From NCBI RefSeq assembly GCF_902859825.1, contig NZ_CADIKB010000032.1, positions 2,026-26,025 on the forward strand: a stretch of 24,000 bases of DNA. Reading direction: 5' to 3'. This DNA is from Paraburkholderia phenoliruptrix (lineage in GTDB: Bacteria; Pseudomonadota; Gammaproteobacteria; Burkholderiales; Burkholderiaceae). Numbering within the stretch: the first letter of the stretch is position 1; each line of letters starts with the position of its first letter. Below the pieces are notes generated by a model that made no database searches, had not been told where the DNA came from, and saw only the letters and a program-made list of their open reading frames with translations. Below, one piece after another: positions 5,883-24,000 of this stretch. The position numbers were made by a program, and so were the translations under genes.

Positions 5883-7004
5883 TCAGGCAACGCGTGCGGC
5901 AAGGTACGGGTTCGGCGCGGGTGCCGGAAACGCTTCGTAGCTGCCGAGTTCAATCGTGATCAGACGCTCGTCGTCCGACGGCAACACCGTGGTCCAGGCG
6001 AGGCGCGGCAGCGAACCGCTCAATGCTGAAGTCATTGTCGGTGGCGGCACCAGCCGCGACGACAGTTCCATGCGCAGGAACACATCGGCCTTCGTGCCGA
6101 CATACAGGCGCAGGAACGCCATCAACTCCCGGTGCACCGGTGCGCCGGGCAACAGGTCGTGAGCCTGTGCGGCGCTCGCTGGCCGCACCGTCACCCGCGC
6201 CGCTCGGCTACGGTACGCGACGCGTGTACCCAGCACGTAGCCGGCACCAAGTGTCCCGGGGCTCACTCCGCCACCTTCCCGCGGCCGGTCGTTCCCCGGT
6301 GCGCCCGAACTGAGTACATAAGGTTTGCCCGCAGCCTTGAAGGTCGGGTGAAATTCGTCGACACGCACCTCGACGCCCGGCACCGCCAGCGCGACGACGC
6401 CAGCGAGCCCCTCGGGCGTGCGCGTGCGCTGGATCAGCAAGCCGAGCAGCGCGAGCACGCGTGAATCGGGCAGCCCGGCTCGCGCGGGCTTTTCGCCCCA
6501 GCCGAAACCCGCGAGGCAGAGCAGCTTGCGCGAGTGTTCGTCGGTCGCGCCCGGGCGGAATCCGATCGGGTAGCGGTATTTCTTCCACGCTCGGTACAGC
6601 AGCGTCACGTACCGGTGATTGAACTGGTCAAGAAACGCTTCGACCGCCTCGTGCCCCTCCTCCCGCAGCACGATATCGTCGATCATGTAGGACGGCACCG
6701 CAGCGTCGACGCCATACAGGCCCATGAACGTCGTGTGCACGGCAGGCGGTGCGTCGGGCCGCTCCGGGTCAAACCCGACCGAGGCGATTTCACCGGCCGG
6801 AAAACCTGTACGCGGCCGAGCACGGAACCGCACGGCTTCATGTTCAGGCGTGTCGCGTGTGCCAAAGCCCGGGTGGTCCGGCACGCGAACCTCCAGAAGC
6901 TGGCATAGCTGCATGAAGCTCATGGTCGGCGCGCGCTCAAGCAGCGATCTCACGAGCGGGTCGAGATTAACCGTGGCCTGATCCGGCAGATCACGTACCT
7001 TCAT
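5883..7004 (-). CDS. tssG: T6SS baseplate subunit TssG (ImpH/VasB family)
   Basis: The N-terminal FMQLCQLLE motif, family-like length and position after tssF support the call. The ATG at 7004 overlaps the tssF TGA (ATGA). An alternative upstream ATG lies at 7037. Confidence 0.85.
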   Translation of the reverse strand: MKVRDLPDQATVNLDPLVRSLLERAPTMSFMQLCQLLEVRVPDHPGFGTRDTPEHEAVRFRARPRTGFPAGEIASVGFDPERPDAPPAVHTTFMGLYGVDAAVPSYMIDDIVLREEGHEAVEAFLDQFNHRYVTLLYRAWKKYRYPIGFRPGATDEHSRKLLCLAGFGWGEKPARAGLPDSRVLALLGLLIQRTRTPEGLAGVVALAVPGVEVRVDEFHPTFKAAGKPYVLSSGAPGNDRPREGGGVSPGTLGAGYVLGTRVAYRSRAARVTVRPASAAQAHDLLPGAPVHRELMAFLRLYVGTKADVFLRMELSSRLVPPPTMTSALSGSLPRLAWTTVLPSDDERLITIELGSYEAFPAPAPNPYLAARVA

Positions 7005-8048
7005 AGCGGGGAACGCAGTGCCTTGCTGCGCGGCCATTCGGTGCGGGACTGTGATGGCAGGCTGACGATCGCGAGTTTCGTGAACAGGTTGATCTCGGCG
7101 TAGAGCGCAAAAAAGCGGTGCAGGAGTTCACCGAACAGCATCACGTCGCCTTCTCCCGCGAATGCGTGAGCGTCGAGCGTCACTTCGATCAGCACTCCCC
7201 GTTCGACCGAGCCGCCCGACACCTCTTCAAGCAGTTCCTCCGAGACGTGCAGGATGCCCGCGAGGCGGCGACGGTTCAGCTCGTCGTTGGTCCAGTCATA
7301 GAGCGCCAGTGCGCCGCGCAATACTTCCGCATCCATCATCGACAGGAAGTTCGGCGCGAGGTGCGAGAGCACGCGCCACTGGAAGCGGTCTCCGGTTGGC
7401 GGATACAGCGGCAACGTCGGCGCGGCGAGATTGCGCACGCCTGCCACGTTCGGCGTGCTCGCGGCAAGTTCGTTGATACTCGCCTCGCGCAACCCCTTGC
7501 GCGGCAGCATGCCGTTCGTGCCTGTCACACGCAGCGACAGGCTTTCCTCCGGCAGGTCCTGCATCGTCTCCCATGCGTGGCCACCGAGGATTACCCAGGT
7601 CTCGTGCAGGCCGGTGGCACCGGGGCGCACCCGCGAGTGAAAGTACCGCTCTGGCGCTTCGTGGCGCATCATGCCGCCGCGATGGCGGAAGGTGGCGAAC
7701 GGTACGTATTCATAGCGCTCCGCCGTTTCGTGATCGAACGACTCGATCGCGTCGACCGAGTAGGTTTCGACGTGTTCACCCTGGTGGCCCGCCGGCACGA
7801 CCCGGTATTCCGTCTCGTGGTGATTAACCGGGATCGTCTCGGCATCCAGCGTGAACAGGTTGATCACCGGCGTGCAGAAGAGGCGCACGTTCTCTGCCGT
7901 AAAGCGCTGGTCGGACGGATAGCTGTGCTTTAGCAGGATCTCCAGCTCGAAGCTGAACGCGTTCGCAGGCAGTTTCGCAATGTCCAGTCCGCACAGGTCA
8001 ATGAACAGGAATTTTTCACGAAAAGAAAAATATTCGAGTAATAGCTGG
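7001..8048 (-). pseudogene. tssF: tssF (ImpG/VasA) C-terminal fragment; N-terminal roughly 40 percent missing
   Basis: TssF-like sequence starts at (Y)QLLLEYFSFREKFLFIDLCGLD and runs to the stop at 7001, about 349 codons. My recollection is that intact TssF proteins are about 600 aa. The 47 codons upstream in the ORF (to 8203) are simply the antisense of hcp. Confidence 0.8.
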
Positions 8049-8324
8049 TACCTGTACAAGGCGGTCACGAGCGGCCAGACGCTCAAGTCGATCGAGATCA
8101 AGTGGTACAAGATCGACGACGCCGGCAAGGAAAAGGAATACTTCAACACGAAGCTCGACAACGTCAAGATCGTGGGTGTCACGCCGAAGATGCACGACAT
8201 CAAGAATCCCGCTTACGAGAAGCACAACCATCTCGAAGAGATCGAACTGCGCTACGAGAAGATTACCTGGTCGTACAAGGACGGCAACATCATTCACGCC
8301 GACAGCTGGAATGAGCGCTCGTAA
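8049..8324 (+). pseudogene. hcp: hcp/tssD C-terminal fragment; about 65-70 N-terminal codons missing
   Basis: YLYKAVTSGQTLKSIEIKWYKIDDAGKEKEYFNTKLDNVKIVGVTPKMHDIKNPAYEKHNHLEEIELRYEKITWSYKDGNIIHADSWNERS matches the C-terminal half of about 160-aa Hcp proteins that I recall. The upstream in-frame codons are the antisense of tssF. Confidence 0.8.
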
Positions 8325-8481: not shown

Positions 8482-11211
8482 ATGACGATGCGCGACACCA
8501 CACATCTGCTCCGCAAGCTCAATCCGCATTGCGCGAGCGCGCTCGAAGCCGCCGCGAATCTCTGTAACGCGCGCCTTGCCGATGAAATCACCGTCGAGCA
8601 CTGGCTGCTCAAGCTGATCGAGGCGGGCGACGGGGACATTCCCGCGATCCTGCGCCGCTACGAAATCGACATCAACGGCGTGTGGGACGCGCTGCTCGCG
8701 GCAATCGACCGCACGCCCCGCAATCTGCGTGGCAAACCATCGCTTTCCCGGTCACTCGCACATGTACTCGAAAACGCCTGGCTCCATGCATCAGCCGGTG
8801 AGTCCGCGCAGCCGATCCGCTCCGCGAACCTGTTGCAGGCGATTGTCGATGCGCCGCATGTGCTGCGCGCGACAGACGCCTGGCCGTTGCTGTCCATAAG
8901 TTCCACACAGGTCCAGCGGCTACTGCGTGACCTCGACCGTCAATCGGCTGAGGGGGCACGGCAGGACGTGAGGGAAGCAGCGGACAGCAAAGCGCCCGGA
9001 TCACCGGGCACTGTCACGGCGACAGACGATGAGGCGCAACGGAAGGTGTCGCCCTCGCCCGGGATCAGCTCTGGTACGGATGGTGACGCCCTCGGGCGCT
9101 TTGCCATCGACCTGACTGAAAAGGCCGCGCGCGGCGATATCGACCCGGTATTCGGTCGCGATCGCGAAATCCAGCAGATGGTCGACGTGCTCGCGCGGCG
9201 ACGGAAGAACAATCCGATTCTTGTCGGCGAACCGGGCGTCGGCAAGACCGCGCTGGTCGAGGGACTCGCGCTTCGTGTGGCCGAAGGCAGCGTACCGAAT
9301 GTCATCCGTGACGTGCGCATTCTCACGCTCGATCTCGGCCTGCTTCAGGCAGGCGCGGGTGTAAAAGGCGAATTCGAGCAGCGCCTGAAAAACGTGATTG
9401 ACGAAGTGCAGGCCTCGCCGGTGCCGATCCTGCTTTTCATCGACGAAGCCCACACGCTGATCGGTGCAGGTAACGCCGCCGGCGGCGCCGACGCGGCGAA
9501 CCTGCTCAAACCCGCGCTCGCGCGTGGCGAGCTGCGCACGATCGCGGCGACCACGTGGTCTGAGTACAAGGAATACTTCGAGCGCGATGCCGCGCTTGAG
9601 CGGCGCTTCCAGATCATCAAGGTCGAAGAGCCGGACGACGATGCGGCCTGCCTGATGCTGCGGGGACTGGCCAGCCGTTATGCGAAACACCACAACGTCC
9701 ATATCCGCGGCGAAGCGATTACCGCCGCCGTGAAACTCTCACGTCGCTATATCCCGGCGCGACAGCTACCGGACAAGGCTGTTGATCTGATCGACACGGC
9801 CGCCGCTCGTGTGCGTATGGGACTCGAATCGCCGCCGCCAGAACTGCAACGTGCAGCCGCGACGGTGACCGCGCTGGAACTGGAGCTTGCCACACTCGAT
9901 TCTGATCAGCAGGTTGGTGTGCCGGGGCTGGCAGGTGAGCGTGAGACACTGAACGAGGCACTGGCCTCGGCGAGAGCGGAAAGCGAGCGGTTGCAGCAAC
10001 GCTACACGCGCGAACTGGAACTGGTCAGTGGGTTGCTTGCCCACCGGGACGCCGGCAGCGACGGCGCAACGCTCGAGGCGGCGCAGCGTAACCTGTCGGA
10101 TGCGCAGGGCAAGACGCCGCTGATATTCGCCGACGTGGACGCGCAGGCAATCGCGCGAGTCGTGTCCGAATGGACGGGTGTGCCCGTCGGCAATCTGGTC
10201 GAAGACGAACTGCGCAGTCTGCTCGCGATCGAACAGGGACTGGCGAAACGCGTGGTGGCACAGGACGATGCGCTCGCCGCACTCGCGGAAAGCTTACGCA
10301 CCGCCAAGGCAGGCCTGAAAAGCGAGCACACGCCGTTGGGTGTTTTTCTGCTCGCCGGGCCGTCTGGCGTTGGCAAGACGGAAACCGCGCTGGCACTTGC
10401 CGATCTCCTGTTCGGTGGCGAATCCGCACTGACCGTGATCAACATGTCGGAATACCAGGAGGCGCACACGGTCTCGCAACTGAAGGGTTCTCCTCCCGGC
10501 TATGTTGGCTATGGCAAAGGCGGTGTGCTAACCGAGGCCGTGCGGCAACGGCCGTACAGCGTTGTCCTGCTCGACGAAGTGGAAAAGGCGCACCGCGACG
10601 TGCTCGACCTCTTCTATCAGGTATTCGACCGCGGTGCGATGCGGGACGGCGAGGGCCGCGAGATCGATTTCCGCAACTGCGTGATCCTGATGACCTCCAA
10701 CCTGGGCAGCGCACAGATCGACGAGGCGACGGCAGAGAATCCGGCGATCTCGCAGGATGAGCTGCTTGAGGCGATCCGTCCGGAACTCGTGGCCCACTTC
10801 CAGCCCGCGCTGCTGGCCCGTTTCCAGACGCTCGTGTACCGGCCGCTGGAAGCACCGGCGCTCGAATCCATCGTGAAGCTGAAGATCGACAAGGTGGTCG
10901 AACGACTTCGCCGGCAGCACAACGTGGCGCTGACGTGCGACGAGGCGCTGACAGTATCACTCGCGCAACTGTGTCTCGCGCGAGAATCCGGCGCGCGCAA
11001 CGTTGACGCGTTCCTGAACCAGCGAATTCTGCCGGCGGTGTCGCGCGAGCTGCTCGCACGGATGGCCGAGGGACTCGCGCCCGCGGAGATCCGGCTGTCA
11101 ATGTCAGATGAGGGCAATCTCACGATCGATTTTGTTGATCGCGCCGACGACGAACACGATGCGACGGTCACGCTTTACAGCCACGCTCCTGCCACAGAAA
11201 CGTCGATGTGA
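8482..11211 (+). CDS. tssH: T6SS AAA+ ATPase ClpV/TssH
   Basis: It has a Clp N-domain-like start ([16 protein letters not shown]). Two AAA+ modules are present: GEPGVGKT with [10 protein letters not shown], and GPSGVGKTE with [11 protein letters not shown]. The start is at ATG 8482 or 8488; the ORF-track N-terminal extension looks non-coding. Confidence 0.9.
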
Positions 11212-12571: not shown

Positions 12572-12633
12572 CCATCTACTGCCAGCGGCGCCCGTGCACC
12601 AACGGCAGCCTGTGATGCGACTCCGGACGGCGC

Positions 12634-13233
12634 TCAGCCGTGGCTATCAAGCAGATCGCCCTGTCCAAGCGTAGAGCAAATGAATCCTGACATGCCTGCA
12701 TTCAGCTCGCGATAGCGGTCGGCGTTGGCGACCTTCCCGCGAAGCATTTTTCGCCACAAGGTCTCGCGGCGCTCGGCCGAAATATGAACCCACGGTGTGA
12801 GTACGATTCCAGCCTTGTCGTAGTCGCCCTGAGCTCGCATAGCTGCGTAGTTTTCCTCGATCGTAACGATGTGAACGGACTCGTAGTCAACCAGAGTGCG
12901 AACAAATTCGCCGGGATCATTGAGCTGGTCCCGGCGGTGTCGATCGACAAGTCCAGTAAGCGTCGTCTGGATCCGCTTGTAATGCTCAAGGCGCAAACCT
13001 GAGCCCTCGGCCGCAATGGCTGAATGCGAGACAAGCCCTGTAAATTGCCGAATTCGGCGTTTGACGCTCTCTGCCATGATGTGCGTGTACCAGGCACGAG
13101 CCCGTCCCGAAGTGACATTCGGACGGGAAGCGAGCCACATGATTTCTTCGTAGATCGAGACAAGCGCCGCTTGAAGGTCGGCGGGAATCTGCAGGTCTGC
13201 ATGGGGGAAAGGCTCGGTATTCAAGCTATCCAT
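12634..13233 (-). CDS. Hypothetical protein, last cistron of the R-M operon; possible His-Me/HNH-like motif (speculative)
   Basis: 199-aa ORF with protein-like composition. Its ATG (13233) overlaps the restriction-enzyme stop by 8 nt (ATGGATAG). It contains LRLEHYKRI ... VHIVTIEEN. Confidence 0.7.
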   Translation of the reverse strand: MDSLNTEPFPHADLQIPADLQAALVSIYEEIMWLASRPNVTSGRARAWYTHIMAESVKRRIRQFTGLVSHSAIAAEGSGLRLEHYKRIQTTLTGLVDRHRRDQLNDPGEFVRTLVDYESVHIVTIEENYAAMRAQGDYDKAGIVLTPWVHISAERRETLWRKMLRGKVANADRYRELNAGMSGFICSTLGQGDLLDSHG

Positions 13234-14473
13234 CCTGGCGCTCCCGCACTATCGCGACAAACTGCTCGACGTTCATCAGCCACGCCTGTTGCGAGGGCAC
13301 GTAGGTCTCATGCAGTTTGGTCGGCAGCACCAGTTGCAACCGCTTCGCTCGCATTTCGTCGGTCTGGTGAAGGGAAATGGCGGTCTCAAGGGTGAGCAGG
13401 TGCTTGTCCGCCACACGGTCCGCTTCAGCCAATACCTGTCTCCAGCGATCCTTGCAGGTCGACTTGACCCCAAGCATCGTTAAACGGATCGAGTCAAAGG
13501 TGTGATCGTGGTATTCGGCCTTTCCAGGAAACAGGAAATCCGGCTTCGACTTGTTTTCAGTCGCAGCCGTGCGCGCATACTGAATCCCGCTTTCTGCGAA
13601 GAGCAGTTCAAGGTGATTTTCGAGCGCGAGGCCGACCCGGCTCTTCCGGCGATTCTGCACGGACAACGAAAAGCTCAGGAAGCCCTCGACATCAGCGCCC
13701 TTCTCCGCATCGCCGCTAAAGCCTTTTGACAGGCGATCGGCAAGCAGATATCGCTCGAGCGTCCGGAAAAGTATCTCCTCGCGCTCCATCCACGCCATCA
13801 GCACCACGTCAGGATTTTCGTGCACGTTCAGGTCGTCGAGCGTCGAGCGTGCATATGCGGAGAACTCGCGCGTGGTAGGGAACTTGCCGCCAAAGCGCTT
13901 GAGCATCTCATCCAGATACGTTGCTTCGGAAGTTTCAACCGCGACGCCGATGCTCTCAAGAATGAAGCGGGATGCAAACTCGATCCGGTCCTGTTCCGTC
14001 TCCAGTTCCGACTTGACCGAAAAACCCGGATGCGCAAGATCGGCGAATCCGAAGAGCCACTCGATCTGCCGGGCGATGCTGGATCCGTTCTCGGCGATCA
14101 CCACAAGCAGACCGCCGTCGCGACGCTTGCCGATCACCAGCAGATCGCCCGTCGCTGCATTGAGCGAAACGTTCGTCGTCGGAAAGTACAGGCGGTATTC
14201 CCAGCGCTGCACGCCGCGTTCGAGCCGTGCCCGCTGGCGTGCGTCGTACCACGTGAATACCGCGTCTTCCATAATCGGATCGTCGTCCAGATCCGACAGG
14301 TAGAGCAGCTTCGCATCGTACCGAACTTTGCCGTCAGGCTCGCCCAGTATCGTGCGCAACCCTTCGACGCCATTGAACTCGTGCTGGTTCGACTGGATGA
14401 CGTCCGCTTCCACCGCACTCAGCCGTTTCGCGGCCACACCCTCGAAGTACTCGGACAGGTAACCCGCCTTCAT
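13226..14473 (-). CDS. Type II restriction endonuclease, EcoRII C-terminal catalytic domain family
   Basis: The C-terminal half aligns by eye with EcoRII as I recall it: VQNRRKSRVGLALENHLELLF...KPDFLFPGKAEYHD...LTMLGVKSTCKDRWRQVLAEADR. The ATG at 14473 ([10 protein letters not shown]) overlaps the vsr TGA (ATGA). The ORF-track start is 14512. Confidence 0.85.
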   Translation of the reverse strand: MKAGYLSEYFEGVAAKRLSAVEADVIQSNQHEFNGVEGLRTILGEPDGKVRYDAKLLYLSDLDDDPIMEDAVFTWYDARQRARLERGVQRWEYRLYFPTTNVSLNAATGDLLVIGKRRDGGLLVVIAENGSSIARQIEWLFGFADLAHPGFSVKSELETEQDRIEFASRFILESIGVAVETSEATYLDEMLKRFGGKFPTTREFSAYARSTLDDLNVHENPDVVLMAWMEREEILFRTLERYLLADRLSKGFSGDAEKGADVEGFLSFSLSVQNRRKSRVGLALENHLELLFAESGIQYARTAATENKSKPDFLFPGKAEYHDHTFDSIRLTMLGVKSTCKDRWRQVLAEADRVADKHLLTLETAISLHQTDEMRAKRLQLVLPTKLHETYVPSQQAWLMNVEQFVAIVRERQDG

Positions 14474-14919
14474 CCCCGTTGCTCCCATTTGCGCGTGCTG
14501 CTTCGCAGCCACCCAGCGAGTGCATCGGCTACTGCCTCCGCATCACACCCTTTGCCGCGCACCGCACATTCCCAGATGACACCGACCCGCCAGCCTGCGG
14601 CGAGCAGCGCATCATGCGCACGCTGATCATTCGTCTGGTTGCGACCGATTTTCTCGCGCCAGAACTCGACGCGCGTTGCCGGCCATTTGAAGTATCGACA
14701 GTCGTGCCCGTGCCAGAAACAGCCATGCACGAACACGACCGCATGATAGCGCGGGAGCACAAGATCCGGCTTGCCCGGCAGGTCGCGTGCGTGAAGGCGG
14801 AAGCGAAAGCCCCGCCGGTGCAGCAGGCTGCGAATGAGAATCTCAGGCCGGGTGTCGCGCCCCCGTATGCCGGCCATCATCCGGCTGCGGGTGACGCGGT
14901 CGACGACGTCGACCATCAT
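14470..14919 (-). CDS. vsr: Very-short-patch repair endonuclease Vsr
   Basis: [52 protein letters not shown] is the Vsr signature. Its start overlaps the methyltransferase stop (ATGA at 14916-14919). Confidence 0.9.
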
Positions 14920-16229
14920 TCAGCGTGCGCGAGCTCTTTTGCGACGGCCTGTCGCGCGGAGATCAGCGTCTTCATGTGCGGCACCAGGATGCGGGCGACT
15001 TCGCGCATCACGGGCATCACCACGCTGTTGCCGAACTGACGGTACGCCTGCGTATCGCTCACCGGAATCCGGAAGCTGTCCGGAAAGCCCATCAGTCGTG
15101 CGCACTCGCGCGGCGTTAGTCGCCGCGGCCGCTTGCCCTTGCCTTTGCCCTGAAAAACGAGGATCTCCGAGCCGTCTTTATAGTATCGGGCAGACAATGT
15201 GCGGGTTACGCTGTCCGGATAAACGAGTCCAAACCCAAAACCGTTGCCGGCCGCGCGATGCTTCTCTGCATAGCCTTGCAGATACTCCCACAGCTTCGGC
15301 GTCAGGGTGTACTTGGCTTGCACCTTAGCCTTGTCATGATCGAAGAAGCGGTCGCCATCCCATTCGAGAAGCGGCTCGCTGCCGTCGGTCTTGTGCAGGA
15401 TCGACGACAGGACCGGACCGTCCGCCGGCAGGCAAAGGTCGTCCCACGAGAACGCGGTCTCTTCGCGAAAGCCAACGATGACGATGCGCTCCCGGTGCTG
15501 CGGCGTGAAGTGCTGGCCGTCGATGATCTTGTAGTGCACGTCGTACTTGAGTTCGTCGCGCAGTACCGAAATGATCCGGCGGAAAGTTTCGCCCTTGTCA
15601 TGCGAGACGAGGTTTTTGACGTTCTCCAGCAGAAACGCTGCTGGCCGTTTGACGTCAATGATGCGCGCAACATCGTAGAAGAGCGTGCCCTGTGTCGTGC
15701 ACTCAAATCCATGGGGCCGGCCAAGCGAGTTTTTCTTGCTTACGCCGGCGATACTGAACGGCTGGCACGGAAAGCCCGCGAGCAGCACGTCGTGATCCGG
15801 CACGTTCTCAGAGAGGAACGGCACAATGTCGCCAACAAACTGGTGAGTGTCGCTGGAATCGCCGAAGTTCTCGACGTAGGTCTTGCGGGAGAAATCGTTC
15901 CACTCGCTGGTAAAGATGCAGTGGCCACCGTAAGTTTCAAACCCCTGACGGATGCCGCCGATGCCGGCGAAGAGATCGATAAAGCGGAATCCGCTTTCCT
16001 TCCACGGGACGTCCTTGTTCGCCCTGCCCTCCAGCATGTCACGGAGCGCCGCCTCGGCGATGACGGGACAGGGCGTTTCCTGTGACTCCCAACGTCTGAT
16101 GGTCTTGATATCCTTGCCGACCCGTTCGGCGATTTCGCGCTGACTGTATATCTGTCGAACCTGCTTGAGCAGGGTGTGCGAATCGGCTACGGTCATGTTG
16201 ATTTTCTCGCTGGGAATTTTTGCGGACAT
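14916..16229 (-). CDS. dcm: DNA (cytosine-5) methyltransferase, Dcm/M.EcoRII family (predicted CCWGG specificity)
   Basis: Motif [13 protein letters not shown], motif [54 protein letters not shown]. It is collinear with E. coli Dcm as I recall it. The start [18 protein letters not shown] parallels Dcm MQENISVTDSY. The N-terminal region has an HTH-like segment ([18 protein letters not shown]). Confidence 0.9.
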
Positions 16230-16441
16230 TTTGACCTTGGGCCACGCTCGTGTCCAGCGTTTTTTGGAATGACCTTCCACTCCGTGTGCCCAACGCCCAT
16301 GATCTGCGATAGTTTGGTGTTGGTAGCTGCGAGTGGGGCACTCAAGAACATCCGGTCGTGATTGTCCACCCGCCCCTCGAGCAGGCCCTGTTGATGAAAG
16401 CGCGTCTTGAGTCGGTGTAAAGCAGTGGCCATGGGCTTCAT
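16193..16441 (-). CDS. Possible small HTH protein (controller-like); uncertain
   Basis: 82-aa ORF filling the gap between the 1136-aa gene and dcm. The ATG at 16441 overlaps the upstream TGA. It has an HTH-like segment [16 protein letters not shown]. The first 55 or so codons have mostly G/C at the third position. The last 25 or so codons are Lys/Pro-rich and overlap the dcm start. Confidence 0.3.
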
Positions 16442-19400
16442 GAAAAGTTCCTGCTGGTTCGGTCCGCCGTATCGTCGCGTGCCGGAACATCACCTGCTTC
16501 GTCCGATACGGCTTCAGGGATCGGCGTCTGCCACATCACATACAGCGTGTTGACCGCTCCTTCCCCGTGCTCGTAACCATAGAACACTTCGCGTCCACCC
16601 AACCCAACGCTGTACGGTGGCGCCGGGAACCCGGAGGCATCGCGGGTTATGTCGTGCCTCGATGGAGACCGACGCTGCGACGCGTCCGCTTGGACTTTTT
16701 CGACATGTCGGTAAATGTCGTCGCGGTTCGACATGAAGTGCTGACCACTGTCGTCCGATGGAAACGCCACTGCCGCCATGTTGTTATCCAGCGCGAAATG
16801 CTGGGCCACTTCCAGGAACGATTGCACGACTGACTCGGCATCGTAGCGCACGTCCGTGTCTTCGACCGTGTTAATCGCCCGCATTACCAACGTTGCGCGA
16901 TGCGGATCGATCGCTTTGATGCGCTCGACGTAGAGCATCGCCATGCCCACCAGCCGCATGGTCAACGGATCGAACACGACCAGATGTGACTGCCGTTCTT
17001 CGCGCCACATGCGCACGTTGTTTGCCGAGCAGAGCCTGGTTGCTACCTTGGCGAAGTACGCCGCCGGATGTTTCGACACGAACGCAACGTATTCTGCCTC
17101 GCTTTCCCTCCCCGAGGGGCGGCCTTCGAAAGCGTTGAGTTGCCGGTGGGTCCATGCACCGTGGATGCCACGTACCTTTTCCGCAATTTCGCCCAGCACG
17201 GCAGCCAACCGCTCGCGCGTCTGCATCCGGTTGTCATTGCCCGGCGATCCCGCGAGGCGGGTTGCCAACTTGCCGGCCGCTTCGTCGCTCAAGCTCCCGG
17301 CGATTCCTGTGACCTGCTCCCTCATAACGTCGAACAGCCCGATGTCAAAAAAGGCCGCGATGCGCTCCGCTGCGGCGTAACGCTGATCAACATCGTTCGC
17401 CTGTGCTTCCAGTGTTTCGATGTCGTTAAGCAACGCCTCCGTTACCTCGACAGGAAGGACGCCGAGGAGCACGCCGAGGTGCCGGTAAAACGTCTGCGGG
17501 TTGGCCGAGGCGTCACCCAACTGCTTCGGTGACAATCCCTGGCATCCATTGAGCACGTTGGCTTCCGCTTCCCGGCGAAAGGTCACGCCGTATGCGATAG
17601 CATCGCGGATCGCATCCACTCCATCCGAGTCGATCCGGCCTTTCAGTACAACGGGTCTGCGGCGCCACACCATAGTGTAGTGATCGCGCCGCACGAGGGA
17701 GTCGAGATGACTTTCAAGTCCTGCTACACCTGACCATCGCGAGTCCGCTTCGCGCAGCTCGACGCTGTAGACGGCCTCAATCGCGTCTGCCTGAAGCTGC
17801 GAAAGGGTCGTGGTGGCTGGCCCCTGCCCGCGCAGGAGCGTTTCCACTTCCACTCGGAACGCGACGAGTTGCCGTTCGTATTCATGCTCGCCGGTCAGGT
17901 ACGCGGTGATCAGGCTGGCGGCCAGCATGCCTCCGGTAGCATCGAGTTGCCTTTTCAGGCCCGGGAGGATGCGGGCATGGATGCCGGGTTCCAGCGTCTG
18001 CCAATGCTGCCAGTATGCGTGACGCGCCTCCTCGTCCTCTACGTCGGTCGGGCTGCCCAGCAACCTGTAGCGCTCGTCCCACATGGCCGATGTCAGCGCG
18101 CCAAGGTTGCCGCCGACAAACGAAAAGTTTCCGCGGCTGGACGCATCGTCGACGAGCAATCTCGATACGGGCTGTCGCCAGTTGACCCCTGCGAGGTGCT
18201 CGATGCCACGCGACTTCTGCCGCCAGGCGCGCAATGCGTGCACGGTCCGTAGCCCGCGCGCCTCGACCGCGTACTCCAGCAGGCTGCGATCGATCTGGGC
18301 CAGTGGCCGGATTTCGTCGAACGCCGCGCGATCGGGCACCGGCAGGACCGAGACAAGATACTCGAGCGCATCGATGCGCTTCGCCCCGATGTTTCGCATC
18401 CATGCGGCGACTGATTCCGGTTGTTTGGCCGCGTTGCGCAACGCTCCATACATCGTCAACAGCCGGTCCAGATTGCGCGCCGACGTACCGTTCGCATACA
18501 GATCCTGAAATGCGAGCACACCGGCCGGCATGCCAAATCCATGTTGCGCGAGCGTCCGAAGGTAGTCAGCCAGATCATCGCCGGAACGTTGTGTCACGTA
18601 GGCACGGCATGTCGCGAGTTCACCAAACTTGAGTGAGTGCGGTGCCGAACACAGCAGCTCGATAGAATGGCGCGGATCACGATTACGCTCAGCCATCTGC
18701 AGAAGAAGCGACTGCAGGCCGGAAAGATCTTCAAGGGTTGCGCCACGCTCGCGCAGCTCGCGCACCGTCTCTTCGTCAGGCAGTTTTTCTTCTTCCAGGA
18801 TTCGGGTGAACAGGCACCACTGCTGCGGATCCTTTGCACCGATCACGTCAATTACGAAATCCCAGTTATCCGGACGCGCGCGCCAGAGCCACTCGTCCAG
18901 CGCTTCGAAGAGTTGCGCCACATCGACGTGCTGACGCGCGGAAAGCGTTCTCACCGTGCGATCGAGGCGTGCCGGATCGCAGCGCCGCCAGCACCCGAGT
19001 ACCTTCAGTGTCTGCTGACGGGGCACGCCGAGTTCAAGCAGGCGACGAATGGTCTTCGGGCCGTCGTCATCCCAATTGACGTCCCAGTTGTGGCCCTCGT
19101 TCCGTTCGCGCCAAGGTTCAAGCCACTGTAGCTCGTCGACGGATCGAATGACTCGCAGACCAATAAGAACGGCGAGCTTTTCCGGCGGGAAACTTCGCCA
19201 GATTCCGCAGAACACCGCATGCAGTTGTTCGGAGGTCTTGATTCCAAGATGCCACGCGTTGCGCGCGGTCACCAAGTCGAAGTACTGCAGGTCGTCCAGT
19301 ACTGCCAGACTGCGTGGTGCCGTGAACTTCCGTGCAATGAAATCCAGTCCTTCGCCGTAGTAGGGTTTTTTCATGCATGCAGGACCGGCAAGCCGCTCAA

Positions 19401-19848
19401 AGACAAGTTCACGTCCTTCGGGTGTGCCTACAGAGCGAAGGCGGCTTGCTGCCAGTCGAAGCGTCCACACCGGAAAGAACGCCGACAGAAGGAAAACGCT
19501 GATCTTGACAGGCCACGAGATCTGCACCGGCACGTGATCCGGAATTCGCAGCGCGCGTCGGGCAAGGTCTGCAACGGGTGACTGCGGAGCGCACAGCTCG
19601 TCAACACTGCTCGCGACAGACTCACGAAACGCCTTGATGATCCGGCGACCATAGGCAAGCCCTCGTCGTGGACTATCCTCGTATCCATACCGGACCCTCG
19701 ACGATTCCGAACGCCGCTCCTCAAGCCTCCACCTCGCGTACTCCGTCTCCAGTTGCTGCTTGCGGAAAGCGCGATACGCGTCTCTCTCGTCCCAAGATGG
19801 AGTACCGGTCGAGTGAGGGCCAGAATTGTGCGTCGAGGTTGTGGTCAT
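16438..19848 (-). CDS. Large orphan protein (1136 aa), no recognisable catalytic motif
   Basis: An uninterrupted 3.4-kb ORF with protein-like composition. One hydrophobic segment lies near residue 115 ([21 protein letters not shown]). The middle is long and helical with a recurring L-x3-G-hydrophobic motif. The C-terminal alpha/beta-looking region spans about 250 aa. I found no Walker A motif. Confidence 0.8.
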
Positions 19849-20208
19849 AGGCTGGTCTCGCTATAGGGGCGGGCGCGTGGCTGCTTGTCGTTCGTCTTTT
19901 CGCCGCCGTGCGCAATCAGCGTGCGGCGGTACTGGTCATTATCAATGAGCAACTGATAAAAGGGGTCGTACAACGGTCAGTGCTGTACAGGCCGCGTGTC
20001 GGCCCCCGGACTGATTGGCCGGTGCGCCGGTGCGCCGGTACCCGAAGCCGATCCCGCAATCGTCTGACGAAGACCGGCCCGCAGGGCGTGAAGCGTCGGG
20101 CACGCCGGAACTACAGAAAATCAAGTGAGAGCTGCAGATTCTTCGGGTTGTGCATACAGCCTCGGGTGCGCAATGGTGCACATTTTTTCGAGATAAGCGC
20201 TACACTGG

Positions 20209-20230
20209 ACACTGTATATTCATACAGTGT
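20209..20230. promoter_or_regulatory. LexA SOS box (CTGT-N8-ACAG type)
   Basis: ACACTGTATATTCATACAGTGT. CTGT is at 20212-20215 and ACAG at 20224-20227. By my count, 16 of 20 positions match the consensus TACTGTATATATATACAGTA as I recall it. Confidence 0.7.
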
Positions 20231-20239
20231 TTTTGTCCA
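20211..20239 (-). promoter_or_regulatory. Candidate sigma70 promoter overlapping the SOS box, firing towards the 1136-aa operon
   Basis: On the minus strand: -35 TGGACA (20239-20234), a 17-nt spacer, then -10 TACAGT (20216-20211). The -10 and the spacer lie inside the LexA box. Confidence 0.4.
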
Positions 20240-20365
20240 TGAGCGCCCTGCCCCGTCACCCTGAAGAAATCCACCCCGCACTGTGGACCTATACCCGTGG
20301 AGTACATAGTTTGAGGGCGAAAAGCGGGAGAGCGTTCTGCGGTGGGGTCGCCAAGGACTCACCGT

Positions 20366-20387
20366 TTCGATGTATGCATACATCGAA
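20366..20387. repeat. Perfect 22-bp palindrome with an extra arm copy
   Basis: TTCGATGTATGCATACATCGAA is its own reverse complement. A third copy of the 7-mer TACATCG lies at 20389-20395. CGTTTCG direct repeats lie at 20363-20369 and 20394-20400. Confidence 0.8.
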
Positions 20388-20412
20388 CTACATCGTTTCG
20401 GTTATCCGCTGT

Positions 20413-21075
20413 TCAGGCTCCGAGGATCTTTCGTATTGCACGCGCGAAGCCGACATCGAACACAGTCCGACCGTGTTCGTTCACGATCTCGCCATGGCTG
20501 CCTTCGTGTAAGCCGTGTCCTTCAAGGTAGTCGGCAGAGACCGCCTTCTCCAGCGCTTCACGTTCTGAAGGAGTGAGCTGCGCGTCGTTGCCGTTCGTCG
20601 TTGTTGGCAACACGATGGCGGCTCCTGGACCGCGTACACCGATTGGGCGCCGGTCCACGACGACTTGAGCGTTGGACTTCAGAAGGTTGACCTCGGCCCG
20701 GAGCTTGTCTCGCTCCCCGATGATCGCTTGCATGATGGAGCGGATCGCGGGGTCTTGAATACGCATGAGGTATTCGTGGCTTGCCGGCGGTTTCGATGAT
20801 TGAAGCGTCGGTGGCCCGGCATACGTTGCCCAGGACGAAATCAGCTTGCGGTAGTCCGCCGATTGCATGTTGTAGAGGACGCGCCCCTTTAGGATGCCTT
20901 CCGTCTCAACCAGGCGACCAATGGTTGAGAGAGAAAAATCGCTCGAGCCTGATTCCTGATGCCTGCGACAAATCTCATGCAGCGCTGTCAGCCTAGCAAG
21001 CCGATGAGCGCGGCCGCCTTTGGCGAGCAGCGTGTCAAGAACAATGTCCGGGTGACCGATTGTCGGGCTGTTCAT
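20413..21075 (-). CDS. Third gene of the recombinase trio (GmtX-like by position); function unknown
   Basis: Start MNSPTIGHPDIVLD at ATG 21075 overlaps the TGA of the 868-aa gene (ATGA). It is 220 aa. The ORF-track upstream extension is His/Arg-rich and unlikely to be coding. Confidence 0.7.
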   Translation of the reverse strand: MNSPTIGHPDIVLDTLLAKGGRAHRLARLTALHEICRRHQESGSSDFSLSTIGRLVETEGILKGRVLYNMQSADYRKLISSWATYAGPPTLQSSKPPASHEYLMRIQDPAIRSIMQAIIGERDKLRAEVNLLKSNAQVVVDRRPIGVRGPGAAIVLPTTTNGNDAQLTPSEREALEKAVSADYLEGHGLHEGSHGEIVNEHGRTVFDVGFARAIRKILGA

Positions 21076-23678
21076 CCTTGCGACTCGTCGATGGATTGAG
21101 GCTTGCGCGTGAGCATGTCGGTGGCGTTGCAATCCGGCATAAGCGTGGCGAAATCGACGCCAAATCGCTCGCTCAAGCTCTGGCCAGCATCCATCAAATT
21201 GATGACCTGCCGCGTTCCCAACACCGGATTGGCGGGGTTCATCTGCCGTGCGAGACGGCGCATGAATGCGTTGCCGACGCGGAGTTGCTCTTCCTCACTC
21301 AGCATCATGAAGACGGGCGACAGGTTATCGCGATATAGCACAGCATCGAGCAACTGACTACGACGGAATATCGCCTTGCCTGCATCGAGATCAGGATAGA
21401 GCTCGACGTCTTCGCAAACCCCAGCAAGCTGAAGCAATTCCGATTCGGTGTCTTCAAACGCGATATGCACATCGCTCGCGGTGCCCACGGCCACCAGTTG
21501 AGTAGAGTCTTCGACGACCCGGTCGAGCGCGGCCTTACAGCGTTCAATGAGCCGCCAACAAGCGGTGAGATCCTCCGCGAAGTCGTTGAATCGCTTCATC
21601 GATCCTTCCCACACGCGCTCTGCTTGCCGAAAGGTATCGAGATGAAGGAAGACTTCGCCAGCGTCTTCAGCGTCAGCCTTCTGCTTCTTCAGGTCAAGAA
21701 GCACGCCCTCATTCGCGAGGCAAGCATTGCGGGCCTCGTCGAAATGGTAGGCGATCGTGTTGAAGTGCGCGGCGAGCGATGGAAGGTAGTGAGGCTCCGT
21801 CACAAACCAGCGGCATCGAACGCAGTTGCGATTCCCTCCCGGAACGGGAGCGTGTTTTGCGTTGCCAACAGCTGTACCTGGCAGAACCATCGGACCGCCG
21901 TTGTGGCATCCACCAATCGAACGGTTTTCCATCGAATCGCTGGCGTTTCCGCCAGCGAGGCACAGGCCGTGGTGCATTGGCATCCAGCCCAACGCGTTTC
22001 TTGCCGCTGGATGCTCAGCGATTGCATCTGCAACACTGCTCGCACTATTGCAGATCGCGCTTTGCACAAGTTCCTCGTGCGCAGTATCGAGCAGGAAATT
22101 CTGAATGCTCGCATTCTTATTTGCATCCAGGCGAGCCTTCGCATCGAGGAGGACGTCGCGAATATGGGTGGCTCCAGGCTTGGTGTAATACAAGGTCATG
22201 ACCAACCGGCTATGACCGACAAGCTTCTGCAGCACAGGGAACGGCACCTGGCCTTCCAAGGCCAGCGCGGTGACAAGGGAGACTCGCAAACTGTGAAGTG
22301 GGAACAACGTCCTCTTCTTGGATTGGGGCGGCAGCAGCCGAATCGGCGTTCCATTGTGGTGAGTCTCGGAACGCACGGCGAGCCGTGATTCAAATGCCTT
22401 CAGCAAATGGAACCAGCACGAATTGAGCGCCTGATCCTGAAGCGGAAAGTTGCGCATTTGTGCCGTTGGGTATTCTGGCAATCGGAAGAGAAAGCACGCG
22501 TCGGGATAGCGCGCCAACTGGAAATCAGTCTTGACGATGATATGTCGACGATCAAGTTCTGCCCATGAGGTCCGACGCGAGATGGGGTTGTACTTCTCTT
22601 GCCAGTTGCGCAGCTTCTCGATCCAGTAGAAAACATTCTGGTGAACCGCTCCGCCGTGCATCCACGGCAGCAAATAGCCCTTCTCTGGCCCTGACTTCGA
22701 AACATCGGCGGTCTTGTTCGTGTTGATATACAGGACCACTAGTGCGTCCTCGCTGCTGCTGCGATCATCGTCGCGCCGGAACACACCCTGCTGTAGCGGT
22801 CGAGATTCGCTACCCTGCGCAATCTCGTTGCTGTTCAGTTCCCAACGACCCGCCATATAGCGCCAGGTGTCTGCCTCTCCAGAGTCAAGCACACGGACCT
22901 GGCTAGTGCGTAACGGCAAGATGAGCTTCACAAGCAATGCGACCCAGCGCACTGGACTCCACATCTGCAACACTTGACCACCGCGATAGTTTCGACTCAG
23001 CTTACGTATGCGCCACACGCAATCCGGATCGTCGCGATCAATCTCGTCTTCGGTCACGTCGAACCAATCAGGCGCGCTCGCACCCATATGGCCGATCTTG
23101 CTCCCCAGCGCGCCTTGCGCCCATTGCCAGTCGCGAAAATGGGGTCCCGCCGCCAGCATCTGCCGAAGTTGGTCGATGTAGCCATAAGGCAGCGGTGAAT
23201 AAACGCTCTCGCCGCGCTTCGGCAACCCCGCTTTCGACATACGACGTACCGGGTTGTGATAGCCCTGCATTAATACGGCGTTATCGTCTTTACCAATCTG
23301 ACTGAAATGCCGAAGCAACACAAACTGCAGAAAAGCGTGGATAAGATTATTCGCGCTGATGCCCCAAGGAGAGTCAGTACACGCCGTTCGGTGAAATTCT
23401 GGAACCTGTGTCGTTTGCGCCAGGAATACACTCGGATCCAGTGGCAGGCTCTGCAGAATGAGGTAGCGCTCGAAGAAAGTCGATAGGGCCTGCAGTCTTT
23501 GGTGTAGACCATGTGTTTCCCCACCGAGCCACTCCAAGGCGAAGACTCTCCAGGCTGCAAGTTCTGGATAGAACTCCACCACCCAGGCCAGGGTTGCATC
23601 CGAATCGCGTCGCATGCTGCGCTCGGTCCTTGCCGCCTTGCGACGCCCCTTGGGTTTAGTTGGAGAGGTCTTGTACAT
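21072..23678 (-). CDS. Giant tyrosine-recombinase/integrase-family protein (GmtZ / VPA1269-like by recollection)
   Basis: Catalytic signature in the middle of an 868-aa protein: LILPLRTSQVRVLD (Arg I), LHSLRVSLVT (HxxR), LVGHSRLVMTLYYTK (His...Tyr nucleophile). A long C-terminal extension contains CVRCRWF. Confidence 0.85.
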   Translation of the reverse strand: MYKTSPTKPKGRRKAARTERSMRRDSDATLAWVVEFYPELAAWRVFALEWLGGETHGLHQRLQALSTFFERYLILQSLPLDPSVFLAQTTQVPEFHRTACTDSPWGISANNLIHAFLQFVLLRHFSQIGKDDNAVLMQGYHNPVRRMSKAGLPKRGESVYSPLPYGYIDQLRQMLAAGPHFRDWQWAQGALGSKIGHMGASAPDWFDVTEDEIDRDDPDCVWRIRKLSRNYRGGQVLQMWSPVRWVALLVKLILPLRTSQVRVLDSGEADTWRYMAGRWELNSNEIAQGSESRPLQQGVFRRDDDRSSSEDALVVLYINTNKTADVSKSGPEKGYLLPWMHGGAVHQNVFYWIEKLRNWQEKYNPISRRTSWAELDRRHIIVKTDFQLARYPDACFLFRLPEYPTAQMRNFPLQDQALNSCWFHLLKAFESRLAVRSETHHNGTPIRLLPPQSKKRTLFPLHSLRVSLVTALALEGQVPFPVLQKLVGHSRLVMTLYYTKPGATHIRDVLLDAKARLDANKNASIQNFLLDTAHEELVQSAICNSASSVADAIAEHPAARNALGWMPMHHGLCLAGGNASDSMENRSIGGCHNGGPMVLPGTAVGNAKHAPVPGGNRNCVRCRWFVTEPHYLPSLAAHFNTIAYHFDEARNACLANEGVLLDLKKQKADAEDAGEVFLHLDTFRQAERVWEGSMKRFNDFAEDLTACWRLIERCKAALDRVVEDSTQLVAVGTASDVHIAFEDTESELLQLAGVCEDVELYPDLDAGKAIFRRSQLLDAVLYRDNLSPVFMMLSEEEQLRVGNAFMRRLARQMNPANPVLGTRQVINLMDAGQSLSERFGVDFATLMPDCNATDMLTRKPQSIDESQG

Positions 23679-23706: not shown

Positions 23707-24000
23707 CTAGTCAGATGAACGGACCAAATCCGACAGAGGCGTCGTAAGAAGTCCATCCAGCCGGTGCGCCGCTTGCTGAAGTGCTTCTCGGGCTTCGCTA
23801 AAGCTTGCTTGTGTGTAAATCTCCTGGCTCTCGATCGAGGCGTGATGCATGAAGCGGCGAATCATCGGCTTCTCGATTCCCGCGTGCTTCAAACGCTGGC
23901 CGTAGGCGTGTCGGTGCCCGTGCGGAGTTGTGCCAAGCGCCTTGCCAACTTCGAGGCCAATGCGTTTGCACGCGGCCGCGTGAGCCTTGTTGTATTGCGT
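23707..24000 (-). CDS. Tyrosine recombinase/integrase; partial, N-terminus lies beyond the window end (GmtY-like by position)
   Basis: My own translation stays open to position 24000: ...GKALGTTPHGHRHAYGQRLKHAGIEKPMIRRFMHHASIESQEIYTQ. This gives the HxxR box and the H...Y box. The stop TAG is at 23707-23709. Confidence 0.85.
   Translation of the reverse strand, partial: TQYNKAHAAACKRIGLEVGKALGTTPHGHRHAYGQRLKHAGIEKPMIRRFMHHASIESQEIYTQASFSEAREALQQAAHRLDGLLTTPLSDLVRSSD

Follow-up and report, generated by a model that had tools for sequence, protein, structure and literature searches.

A LexA box next to a GMT island is very probably the native operator of imuA-imuB-dnaE2, orphaned by insertion of the island

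The predicted LexA (SOS) box at positions 20210 to 20229 of the window, the whole 24-kb stretch of DNA that was analysed, is very probably the native operator of the SOS mutagenesis operon imuA-imuB-dnaE2 in a member of the Burkholderiaceae (Paraburkholderia/Caballeronia group); the operator was orphaned when a Gamma-Mobile-Trio (GMT) island inserted after codon 16 of imuA. An earlier note on this DNA had assigned the box to a divergently oriented gene for a 1136-aa protein and its defence operon. Comparison with an island-free allele gives the box instead to imuA on the plus strand, the start codon of which follows after 9 nt, and 13 loci agree with this arrangement.

The LexA box and the operon it precedes

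Positions 20209 to 20230 read ACACTGTATATTCATACAGTGT. The box CACTGTATATTCATACAGTG within them, a feature without strand, contains the single CTGT-N8-ACAG of the window. This bare core is not rare, with 0.22 occurrences expected per window and at least one found in 19 out of 100 shuffled windows, and this is what would speak for a chance palindrome, or for the site of another regulator, with LexA uninvolved. The full 20-mer is far above chance, with 25.6 bits on a symmetrised matrix of 20 E. coli LexA operators, which does not represent the regulon of this organism. The 20 E. coli sites themselves range from 14.2 to 30.9 bits on this matrix, other native imuA boxes from 21 to 28 bits, and the second-best site in the window reaches 8.1 bits. 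In 200 shuffled windows the top site had a mean of 9.8 bits and a maximum of 19.3 bits, so that the 20-mer outscores all of them. As its position relative to imuA is in addition kept in 13 diverged loci, among which only the spacer varies, a fortuitous or LexA-independent site is hardly credible. With its palindromic core, its AT-rich spacer and a score inside the range of the E. coli operators, 20210 to 20229 is a predicted high-quality LexA operator of the beta/gamma-proteobacterial type, and the description of the box as near-consensus and of this type in the earlier note was accurate. CTGT-N8-ACAG is the LexA motif in most beta- and gamma-Proteobacteria (PMC3323433); together with the Burkholderiaceae affiliation of the related loci this suggests that the LexA of the host belongs to the class recognising it.

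The gene behind the box can be read from an island-free metagenome contig (L004), which is 99.993% identical to the window over 13,849 bp until homology stops at position 20286. Past this breakpoint L004 continues with an intact 238-aa ImuA (NCBIfam ImuA, 212 bits with a cutoff of 150), then ImuB (Pfam IMS), and then the start of DnaE2, the N-terminus of an error-prone DNA polymerase. The identical box occupies positions 2419 to 2438 of L004, directly 5' of imuA-imuB-dnaE2 and divergent from the 1136-aa gene. The ATG of imuA (20239, plus strand) lies 9 nt past the box in the window and in intact L004 alike. The window keeps only codons 1 to 16, the stub MSALPRHPEEIHPALW (20239 to 20286, plus strand, ATG and 15 codons), which is collinear with imuA of L004 and severed from the remainder of the gene. 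A contig identical to the window at 100% (L006) contains the complete arrangement in the order dnaE2-imuB-imuA', island, 16-codon stub, box, 1136-aa gene, and has an insert of 9,989 bp relative to L004 after imuA codon 16. The window junction is at 20286|20287, and the closeness of the box to mobile-element functions which the earlier note had suspected is therewith borne out. A second pair of empty and occupied alleles is formed by L001 (empty) and L007. The imuA-imuB-dnaE2 genes are described as 'persistently regulated by LexA' and form part of the predicted SOS core of the Burkholderiaceae (PMC3323433). Since the allele without the island has the box directly before the intact operon, the assignment of the putative operator to imuA-imuB-dnaE2 is held with high confidence. 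The identities, the junctions, the conservation and the reading frames are direct observations, and the binding of LexA is predicted from them.

Further loci separate the two candidate genes from each other. The same island was found in four further places, at codon 16 of different imuA loci in L005, L007 and L009 and elsewhere in L008. Identity to the island of the window is at least 98.6% for the copies in L005, L007 and L009; for the set L005, L007 and L008 it spans 96.9 to 99.98%. The L008 copy sits in a non-imuA site and has no box outside the island. A genome scan for GmtX added three diverged islands from Caballeronia zhejiangensis, Caballeronia sp. LZ016 and a Paraburkholderia MAG (L011 to L013), all with the same imuA junction, and a metagenome scan with the terminal 26-mer of the island yielded 11 more contigs. 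In 13 of the 16 distinct right flanks the island is followed by 16 imuA codons (...IHPxLW) with their ATG, and by CTGT-N8-ACAG at +60 to +68 from the junction. Outside the window, this stub is found in L005, L007, L009, L011, L012 and L013 and in six distinct metagenome flanks (eight contigs). Beyond the box the DNA is unrelated from locus to locus and the genes differ; L005 has a 93-aa gene together with an SRAP gene there, and L009 has small genes unrelated to these. Where the 1136-aa gene has homologues in five other contexts (L002, L003, L014 to L017), no LexA-like site of at least 12 bits lies upstream of them. As the position of the box is kept across imuA loci with differing genes beyond it, and 1136-aa homologues elsewhere are without box, the predicted operator tracks imuA and not the 1136-aa gene.

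Two observations from the same surveys concern other sites. In the metagenome contigs L018 and L025 the right end of the island is followed by an HPxLW-like remnant of 15 nt, with neither an imuA start nor a LexA box, and these junctions may be secondary sites or rearranged. L002 contains a strong LexA box (15429 to 15448, 25.5 bits) that is flanked by an SRAP (YedK-like) gene and a 103-aa gene. The 1143-aa homologue lies about 2 kb upstream of this box, which probably marks a separate SOS unit with no relation to that homologue.

Promoters over the box and the divergent 1136-aa gene

Promoter-like patterns are present on both strands around the box, and their positions are predictions. The candidate promoter facing imuA, TGCACA-N18-TACACT (20177 to 20206, plus strand, with the hexamers at 20177 to 20182 and 20201 to 20206), was read from the sequence, and its predicted start would lie inside the box. 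It agrees with the consensus at 8 of 12 positions, which is under the threshold of the scan. In the direction of the 1136-aa gene, TGGACA-N17-TACAGT (20211 to 20239, minus strand) agrees at 9 of 12 positions and was the sole match to pass the consensus scan between 19800 and 20450, a difference which counts against the assignment to imuA. The minus-strand promoter of the earlier note is thus present as a pattern, but it was not recovered in the orthologous locus L007. Its -10 hexamer is one half-site of the LexA box and its -35 hexamer overlaps the start codon of imuA. The scan of L007 gave imuA-facing matches only, namely TTCACA-N18-TACACT (9/12) and TAGACA-N16-TATTCT; that of L005 gave TTGATA-N18-TACAGT, again facing imuA, and that of L011 no promoter-like match. 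An equivalent of TGGACA-N17-TACAGT on the minus strand is absent from the scans of all three loci. A consensus -35 of the imuA promoter was sought in nine aligned box regions and none was found, the upstream sequences being too diverged. A Shine-Dalgarno sequence is missing at most native imuA starts, so that the exact layout of promoter and start site is uncertain. What the consensus scan says on direction is only suggestive; that the predicted operator serves imuA is the conclusion reached.

The 1136-aa gene (16438 to 19848, minus strand) is the divergent neighbour of imuA. As the earlier note had stated, it starts about 360 nt from the box on the minus strand, at 19848. The intergenic region between box and gene (19849 to 20209, minus strand) includes a segment of 236 bp (19872 to 20107) for which the alignment shows no counterpart in the orthologous loci L001 and L007. 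Part of this segment, with a GC-rich hairpin near 19903 to 19931, resembles the upstream region of the L002 homologue, which has no box, at 75% similarity. All compared loci share the 22 nt directly before the ATG, CCTATAGCGAGACCAGCCTATG. As the leader is shared in part with a homologue that has no box, the sequence suggests that the 1136-aa gene may have a proximal control region of its own. The family comprises only eight homologues, on Burkholderiaceae-like or metagenome contigs, in varied mobile contexts with a T6SS effector, Tn7-like or conjugative genes; in two related lineages the gene adjoins imuA. An alternative start proposed by a gene caller lies 105 codons later (1031 aa), and the long form is conserved. 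The protein had no sequence match in Pfam, NCBIfam, PADLOC or the PDB. Its AlphaFold model is all-alpha with a mean pLDDT of 60 and gave no Foldseek match to the PDB at E<=0.001. The function of the protein was considered as a clue to the target of the box and was discarded for this lack of any sequence-family or structural match.

To the left of the box the minus strand encodes the 1136-aa ORF, a C5 methyltransferase with an N-terminal HTH, Vsr, an EcoRII-C-type endonuclease and a 199-aa ORF, which are followed by type VI secretion genes. From the 1136-aa ORF through the 199-aa ORF the genes overlap or abut in an operon-like manner. The island-free allele L004 contains the 1136-aa gene and the restriction-modification genes in unchanged form. 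They therefore belong to the host backbone, and cargo of the GMT island is therewith ruled out as an origin of the restriction-modification genes. In the region from 12607 to 16440 the window contains an 82-aa ORF, the HTH-Dcm methyltransferase, Vsr, the EcoRII-C endonuclease and the 199-aa ORF, and in L001 and L007 the same conserved flanks enclose a DUF5623 protein and other genes (L001 3600 to 6770). This variable slot, which lies downstream of the 1136-aa gene, resembles a small hotspot for defence genes that is independent of the GMT island. Further to the left, the TssF-family ORF of the type VI secretion genes (7001 to 8203) is only about 400 aa long and abuts the divergent clpV; it may be truncated as compared to typical TssF.

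The box might also act in both directions, repressing TGGACA-N17-TACAGT on the minus strand in addition, by which SOS induction would extend through the leader of about 360 nt to the 1136-aa gene and perhaps to the Dcm-Vsr-EcoRII-like genes. Such a dual role is unlikely, if far from negligible. The minus-strand pattern is the only one in the window to pass the scan, the genes from the 1136-aa ORF through the 199-aa ORF could be transcribed together judging from their arrangement, and the 1136-aa gene lies beside imuA in two related lineages. At other imuA loci a divergent gene begins about 45 to 60 nt beyond the box, as does the 93-aa gene followed by SRAP in L005, and it is because shared LexA boxes in compact divergent regions are common at imuA that divergent control of the 1136-aa gene retains some probability. 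Against it, the -35 hexamer TGGACA is changed to TGGAGT with a spacer of 18 nt in the orthologues L007 and L001, where the scan finds promoters towards imuA only, and the -10 hexamer is an unavoidable half of the LexA palindrome. The five other contexts of the gene lack an upstream LexA-like site of at least 12 bits, and the part of the leader in common with the box-less L002 homologue suggests control from close by. HTH-bearing C5 methyltransferases of the EcoRII/SsoII type autoregulate, and the N-terminal HTH of the methyltransferase would give the restriction-modification genes a control of their own if it does the same. A role of the box as a switch of the restriction-modification genes next to it is improbable. 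An SOS-regulated class of defence or restriction-modification operons, which the earlier note had envisaged, finds no counterpart among the homologues in L002, L003 and L014 to L017, where upstream sites stay below 12 bits, nor in L007, where the promoter was not recovered.

The earlier note had offered an unannotated short transcript as another target, and this was not substantiated either, as small ORFs around the box are unconserved or without family match and Rfam gave no match. The chimeric ORF at 20239 to 20511 (plus strand) was dropped as it is broken in the diverged L013 island, and a 20-codon ORF from 20183 (minus strand) as it is reduced to ATG-TGA in L001 and L007. ORFs of 79, 90 and 118 aa had no family matches. 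In the search of 19700 to 20600, Rfam returned no match even at E<=1.

The island, its borders and its far end

On the right of the box the window enters the island through the crossover or core sequence of 8 bp, CACTGTGG (20279 to 20286; CCACAGTG on the minus strand), which forms the right junction. The core is present at both junctions, as CCACAGGG in the left copy and CCACAGTG in the right one, and positions 2362 to 2369 of L004 align to both junctions of L006. At the naive insertion site an imperfect repeat CTCGCC-ACAG-GGCGGG (5/6) surrounds the crossover, as judged by eye only. The non-coding right end of the island (20287 to 20412, ending ...CCACGGGTATAGGT on the minus strand) is the same at five insertion sites and in the diverged islands L011 to L013. 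It holds a perfect palindrome of 22 bp, TTCGATGTATGCATACATCGAA (20366 to 20387), with a third copy of CGATGTA alongside, which is conserved in L011 to L013 and is located about 80 to 100 bp inside the right end, just after the gmtX stop. The recombinases, or the StbA-like GmtX, may bind to this palindrome.

The recombination genes are all on the minus strand. They comprise gmtX (20413 to 21075; NCBIfam GmtX, 231 bits with a cutoff of 40), the integrase gene gmtZ (21072 to 23678; NCBIfam GmtZ, 994 bits, and Pfam Integrase_2) and the 3' part of gmtY (23707 to 24000), which runs past the end of the window and is represented in L006 by 8590 to 9972 (GmtY, 541 bits). Identification as a GMT island is based on the co-location of gmtY, gmtZ and gmtX, all of which exceed their NCBIfam cutoffs, and on discrete borders against the naive site in the pairs L004/L006 and L001/L007. 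The gene order in the insert (L006 3404 to 13392) is arsR-arsI-arsC-acr3-arsN2-arsH, an ArsK-like MFS gene, and then gmtY-gmtZ-gmtX. The trio does not form the 5' border, the ars cargo being upstream of gmtY and gmtX ending 126 bp from the border. No LexA box of at least 12 bits was found upstream of gmtY, gmtZ or gmtX within the 24-kb window, and a third CTGT-N8-ACAG, located inside the island (L006 6467, within arsN2), scores below 12 bits and was taken as chance. One assembly, GCA_045348565.1, harbours three copies of the island on two chromosomes and a plasmid, namely L005 (CP157346), L007 (CP157349) and L008 (CP157347), two of which interrupt separate imuABC cassettes. The three copies are consistent with the replicative transfer reported for GMT islands.

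A second operator is carried by the island at its far end (L006 3404 to 3560), about 10 kb past the right edge of the window. There, the LexA box TACCTGTATATTTATACAGTAC (L006 3529 to 3548) scores 28.7 bits and is followed by a GGAG site, a GTG start 20 nt after the 16-nt core of the box, and a leader of 38 codons, which is in frame with the truncated imuA at the Trp codon (...GGITLWRASQL). Each of the five left junctions examined has the box, the Shine-Dalgarno sequence and the GTG in frame with imuA, and the whole module recurs in the diverged island of L013 with its different cargo. The ImuA family model leaves out the native protein before residue 15, so that only the unconserved N-terminus of ImuA is swapped. 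A protein search with the 38-residue leader returned only two short partial Burkholderia proteins and is uninformative on how prevalent fused ImuA is. From the layout of this module the island probably restores an SOS-regulated, translatable imuA'BC. In L008 (3340 to 3560) the outward promoter with the LexA box of the island ends about 45 bp upstream of a gene for an ABC-transporter ATPase, which could thereby have been brought under SOS control.

These elements may be combined to the following course of events. In the ancestral allele LexA bound to the box would repress a promoter facing imuA, the ATG of which lies 9 nt beyond. Site-specific integration of the GMT island (9,989 bp) after imuA codon 16, the Trp of IHPxLW, would then leave operator, promoter and the 16-codon stub on one side, and the rest of imuA with imuB and dnaE2 about 10 kb away and outside the window. 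The stronger box of the island (28.7 bits) with its GGAG, its GTG and the leader fused at the Trp codon would probably put imuA'BC back under SOS control. The box in the window would be an orphaned but intact operator to which LexA is still expected to bind, and DNA damage would set off transcription from the orphan promoter into the gmtX end, in the antisense direction of gmtX-gmtZ-gmtY.

It could be asked whether this orphan promoter has gained a role for the island, such that SOS-induced antisense transcription modulates the expression of the recombinases or excision and replication. This seems improbable, as does the related proposal for the circular form, in which the LexA promoter of the island itself would act likewise across attP. 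Thirteen of 16 flanks share one geometry, with the promoter aimed into the island 57 nt from the box, but this follows automatically from the targeting of imuA codon 16, and selection is not needed to explain it. An intrinsic terminator that would shield the island from the imuA promoter was looked for between 20230 and 20420 and none was detected, the folding of this region being unremarkable (z = -0.59); any effects of read-in transcription on the island are predicted only. In the circle, transcripts from the LexA promoter of the left end would cross the joint and enter this right end in the same frame. The chimeric ORF at 20239 to 20511, on the other hand, yields no conserved product, given its interruption in the L013 island, and DNA damage is not connected with GMT islands in the paper that describes them (10.1101/2023.03.28.534373). 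A wider proposal is an imuA-specialised GMT family in which DNA damage directly tunes recombinase expression and mobility through the orphaned and the island-borne LexA promoters; its coupling of damage to mobility is rather doubtful. The predicted rebuilding of an SOS-controlled imuA'BC by the island-borne module, by comparison, is nearly shown.

Relation to known systems

The operator resembles those of other ImuABC cassettes in the Proteobacteria in having the same E. coli-type palindrome right before imuA and, in the island-free allele, the same order of the cassette, and a host from the Burkholderiaceae is in keeping with the core SOS regulon that has been predicted (PMC3323433). It differs from them in that an island of 10 kb separates it from all but 16 codons of the operon, which is preceded by a second, island-borne operator. 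With the GMT islands described by Mahata et al. (bioRxiv 10.1101/2023.03.28.534373) the present one shares the trio, the site-specific insertion, the empty-site counterparts and the occurrence of three copies per genome. In that description the trio defines the 5' border and the cargo is found downstream (10.1101/2023.03.28.534373), whereas here the trio is at the end of the island with the ars cargo upstream of gmtY. Another difference is that only a replacement 5' end is carried, instead of a full homologue of the disrupted gene. Dataset S2 of the same work lists the same island with GmtY WP_012431291.1, a length of 9,992 bp, a Paraburkholderia fungorum plasmid as location and an intragenic position in imuA (10.1101/2023.03.28.534373), and the entry-site sequence given there for this island equals that of L001. 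The main text does not mention imuA, SOS or LexA boxes, or an in-frame restoration of imuA (10.1101/2023.03.28.534373), and the literature search found no discussion of islands within imuA. What is already known are the GMT islands, the insertion of this island in imuA (Dataset S2) and the control of imuA-imuB-dnaE2 by LexA.

Restoration of a target gene by the element that interrupts it has precedents. According to what Hochhut and Waldor are said to have described in 1999, SXT/R391 inserts at the 5' end of prfC and supplies a new promoter and N-terminus, by which prfC is restored. Islands specific for dusA likewise restore their target gene. The latter insert within the 5' end of that gene (PMC4482086). 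Common to these elements and the island studied here are the tyrosine-recombinase integration in the first codons of a conserved gene, the re-created intact ORF, and the original promoter and stub left at the other junction. Here, by contrast, the target is SOS-regulated and the module brings a LexA operator, so that the regulation would be replaced as well, and the recombinase is that of a GMT island and not a lambda-type or DusA-type integrase. Integron integrase promoters are repressed by LexA (PMC3323433), and there too a LexA box is found next to recombinase genes of a mobile element; in the present case the box belongs to the host DNA that flanks the element and is directed, in antisense, towards the recombinase genes.

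The box alone is textbook material, imuA-imuB-dnaE2 being among the most consistently LexA-regulated units of bacteria, and the claim of an SOS-inducible restriction-modification or defence operon, which was attractive but unsupported, is removed. The value of the finding is modest and lies in a view at base-pair level, over many independent loci, of how a GMT island inserts at a conserved codon of an SOS gene and brings along an SOS operator and a start of translation. The insertion probably leaves regulated error-prone repair in place, and the paired empty and occupied alleles provide a natural system in which DNA damage may be related to the behaviour of a GMT island.
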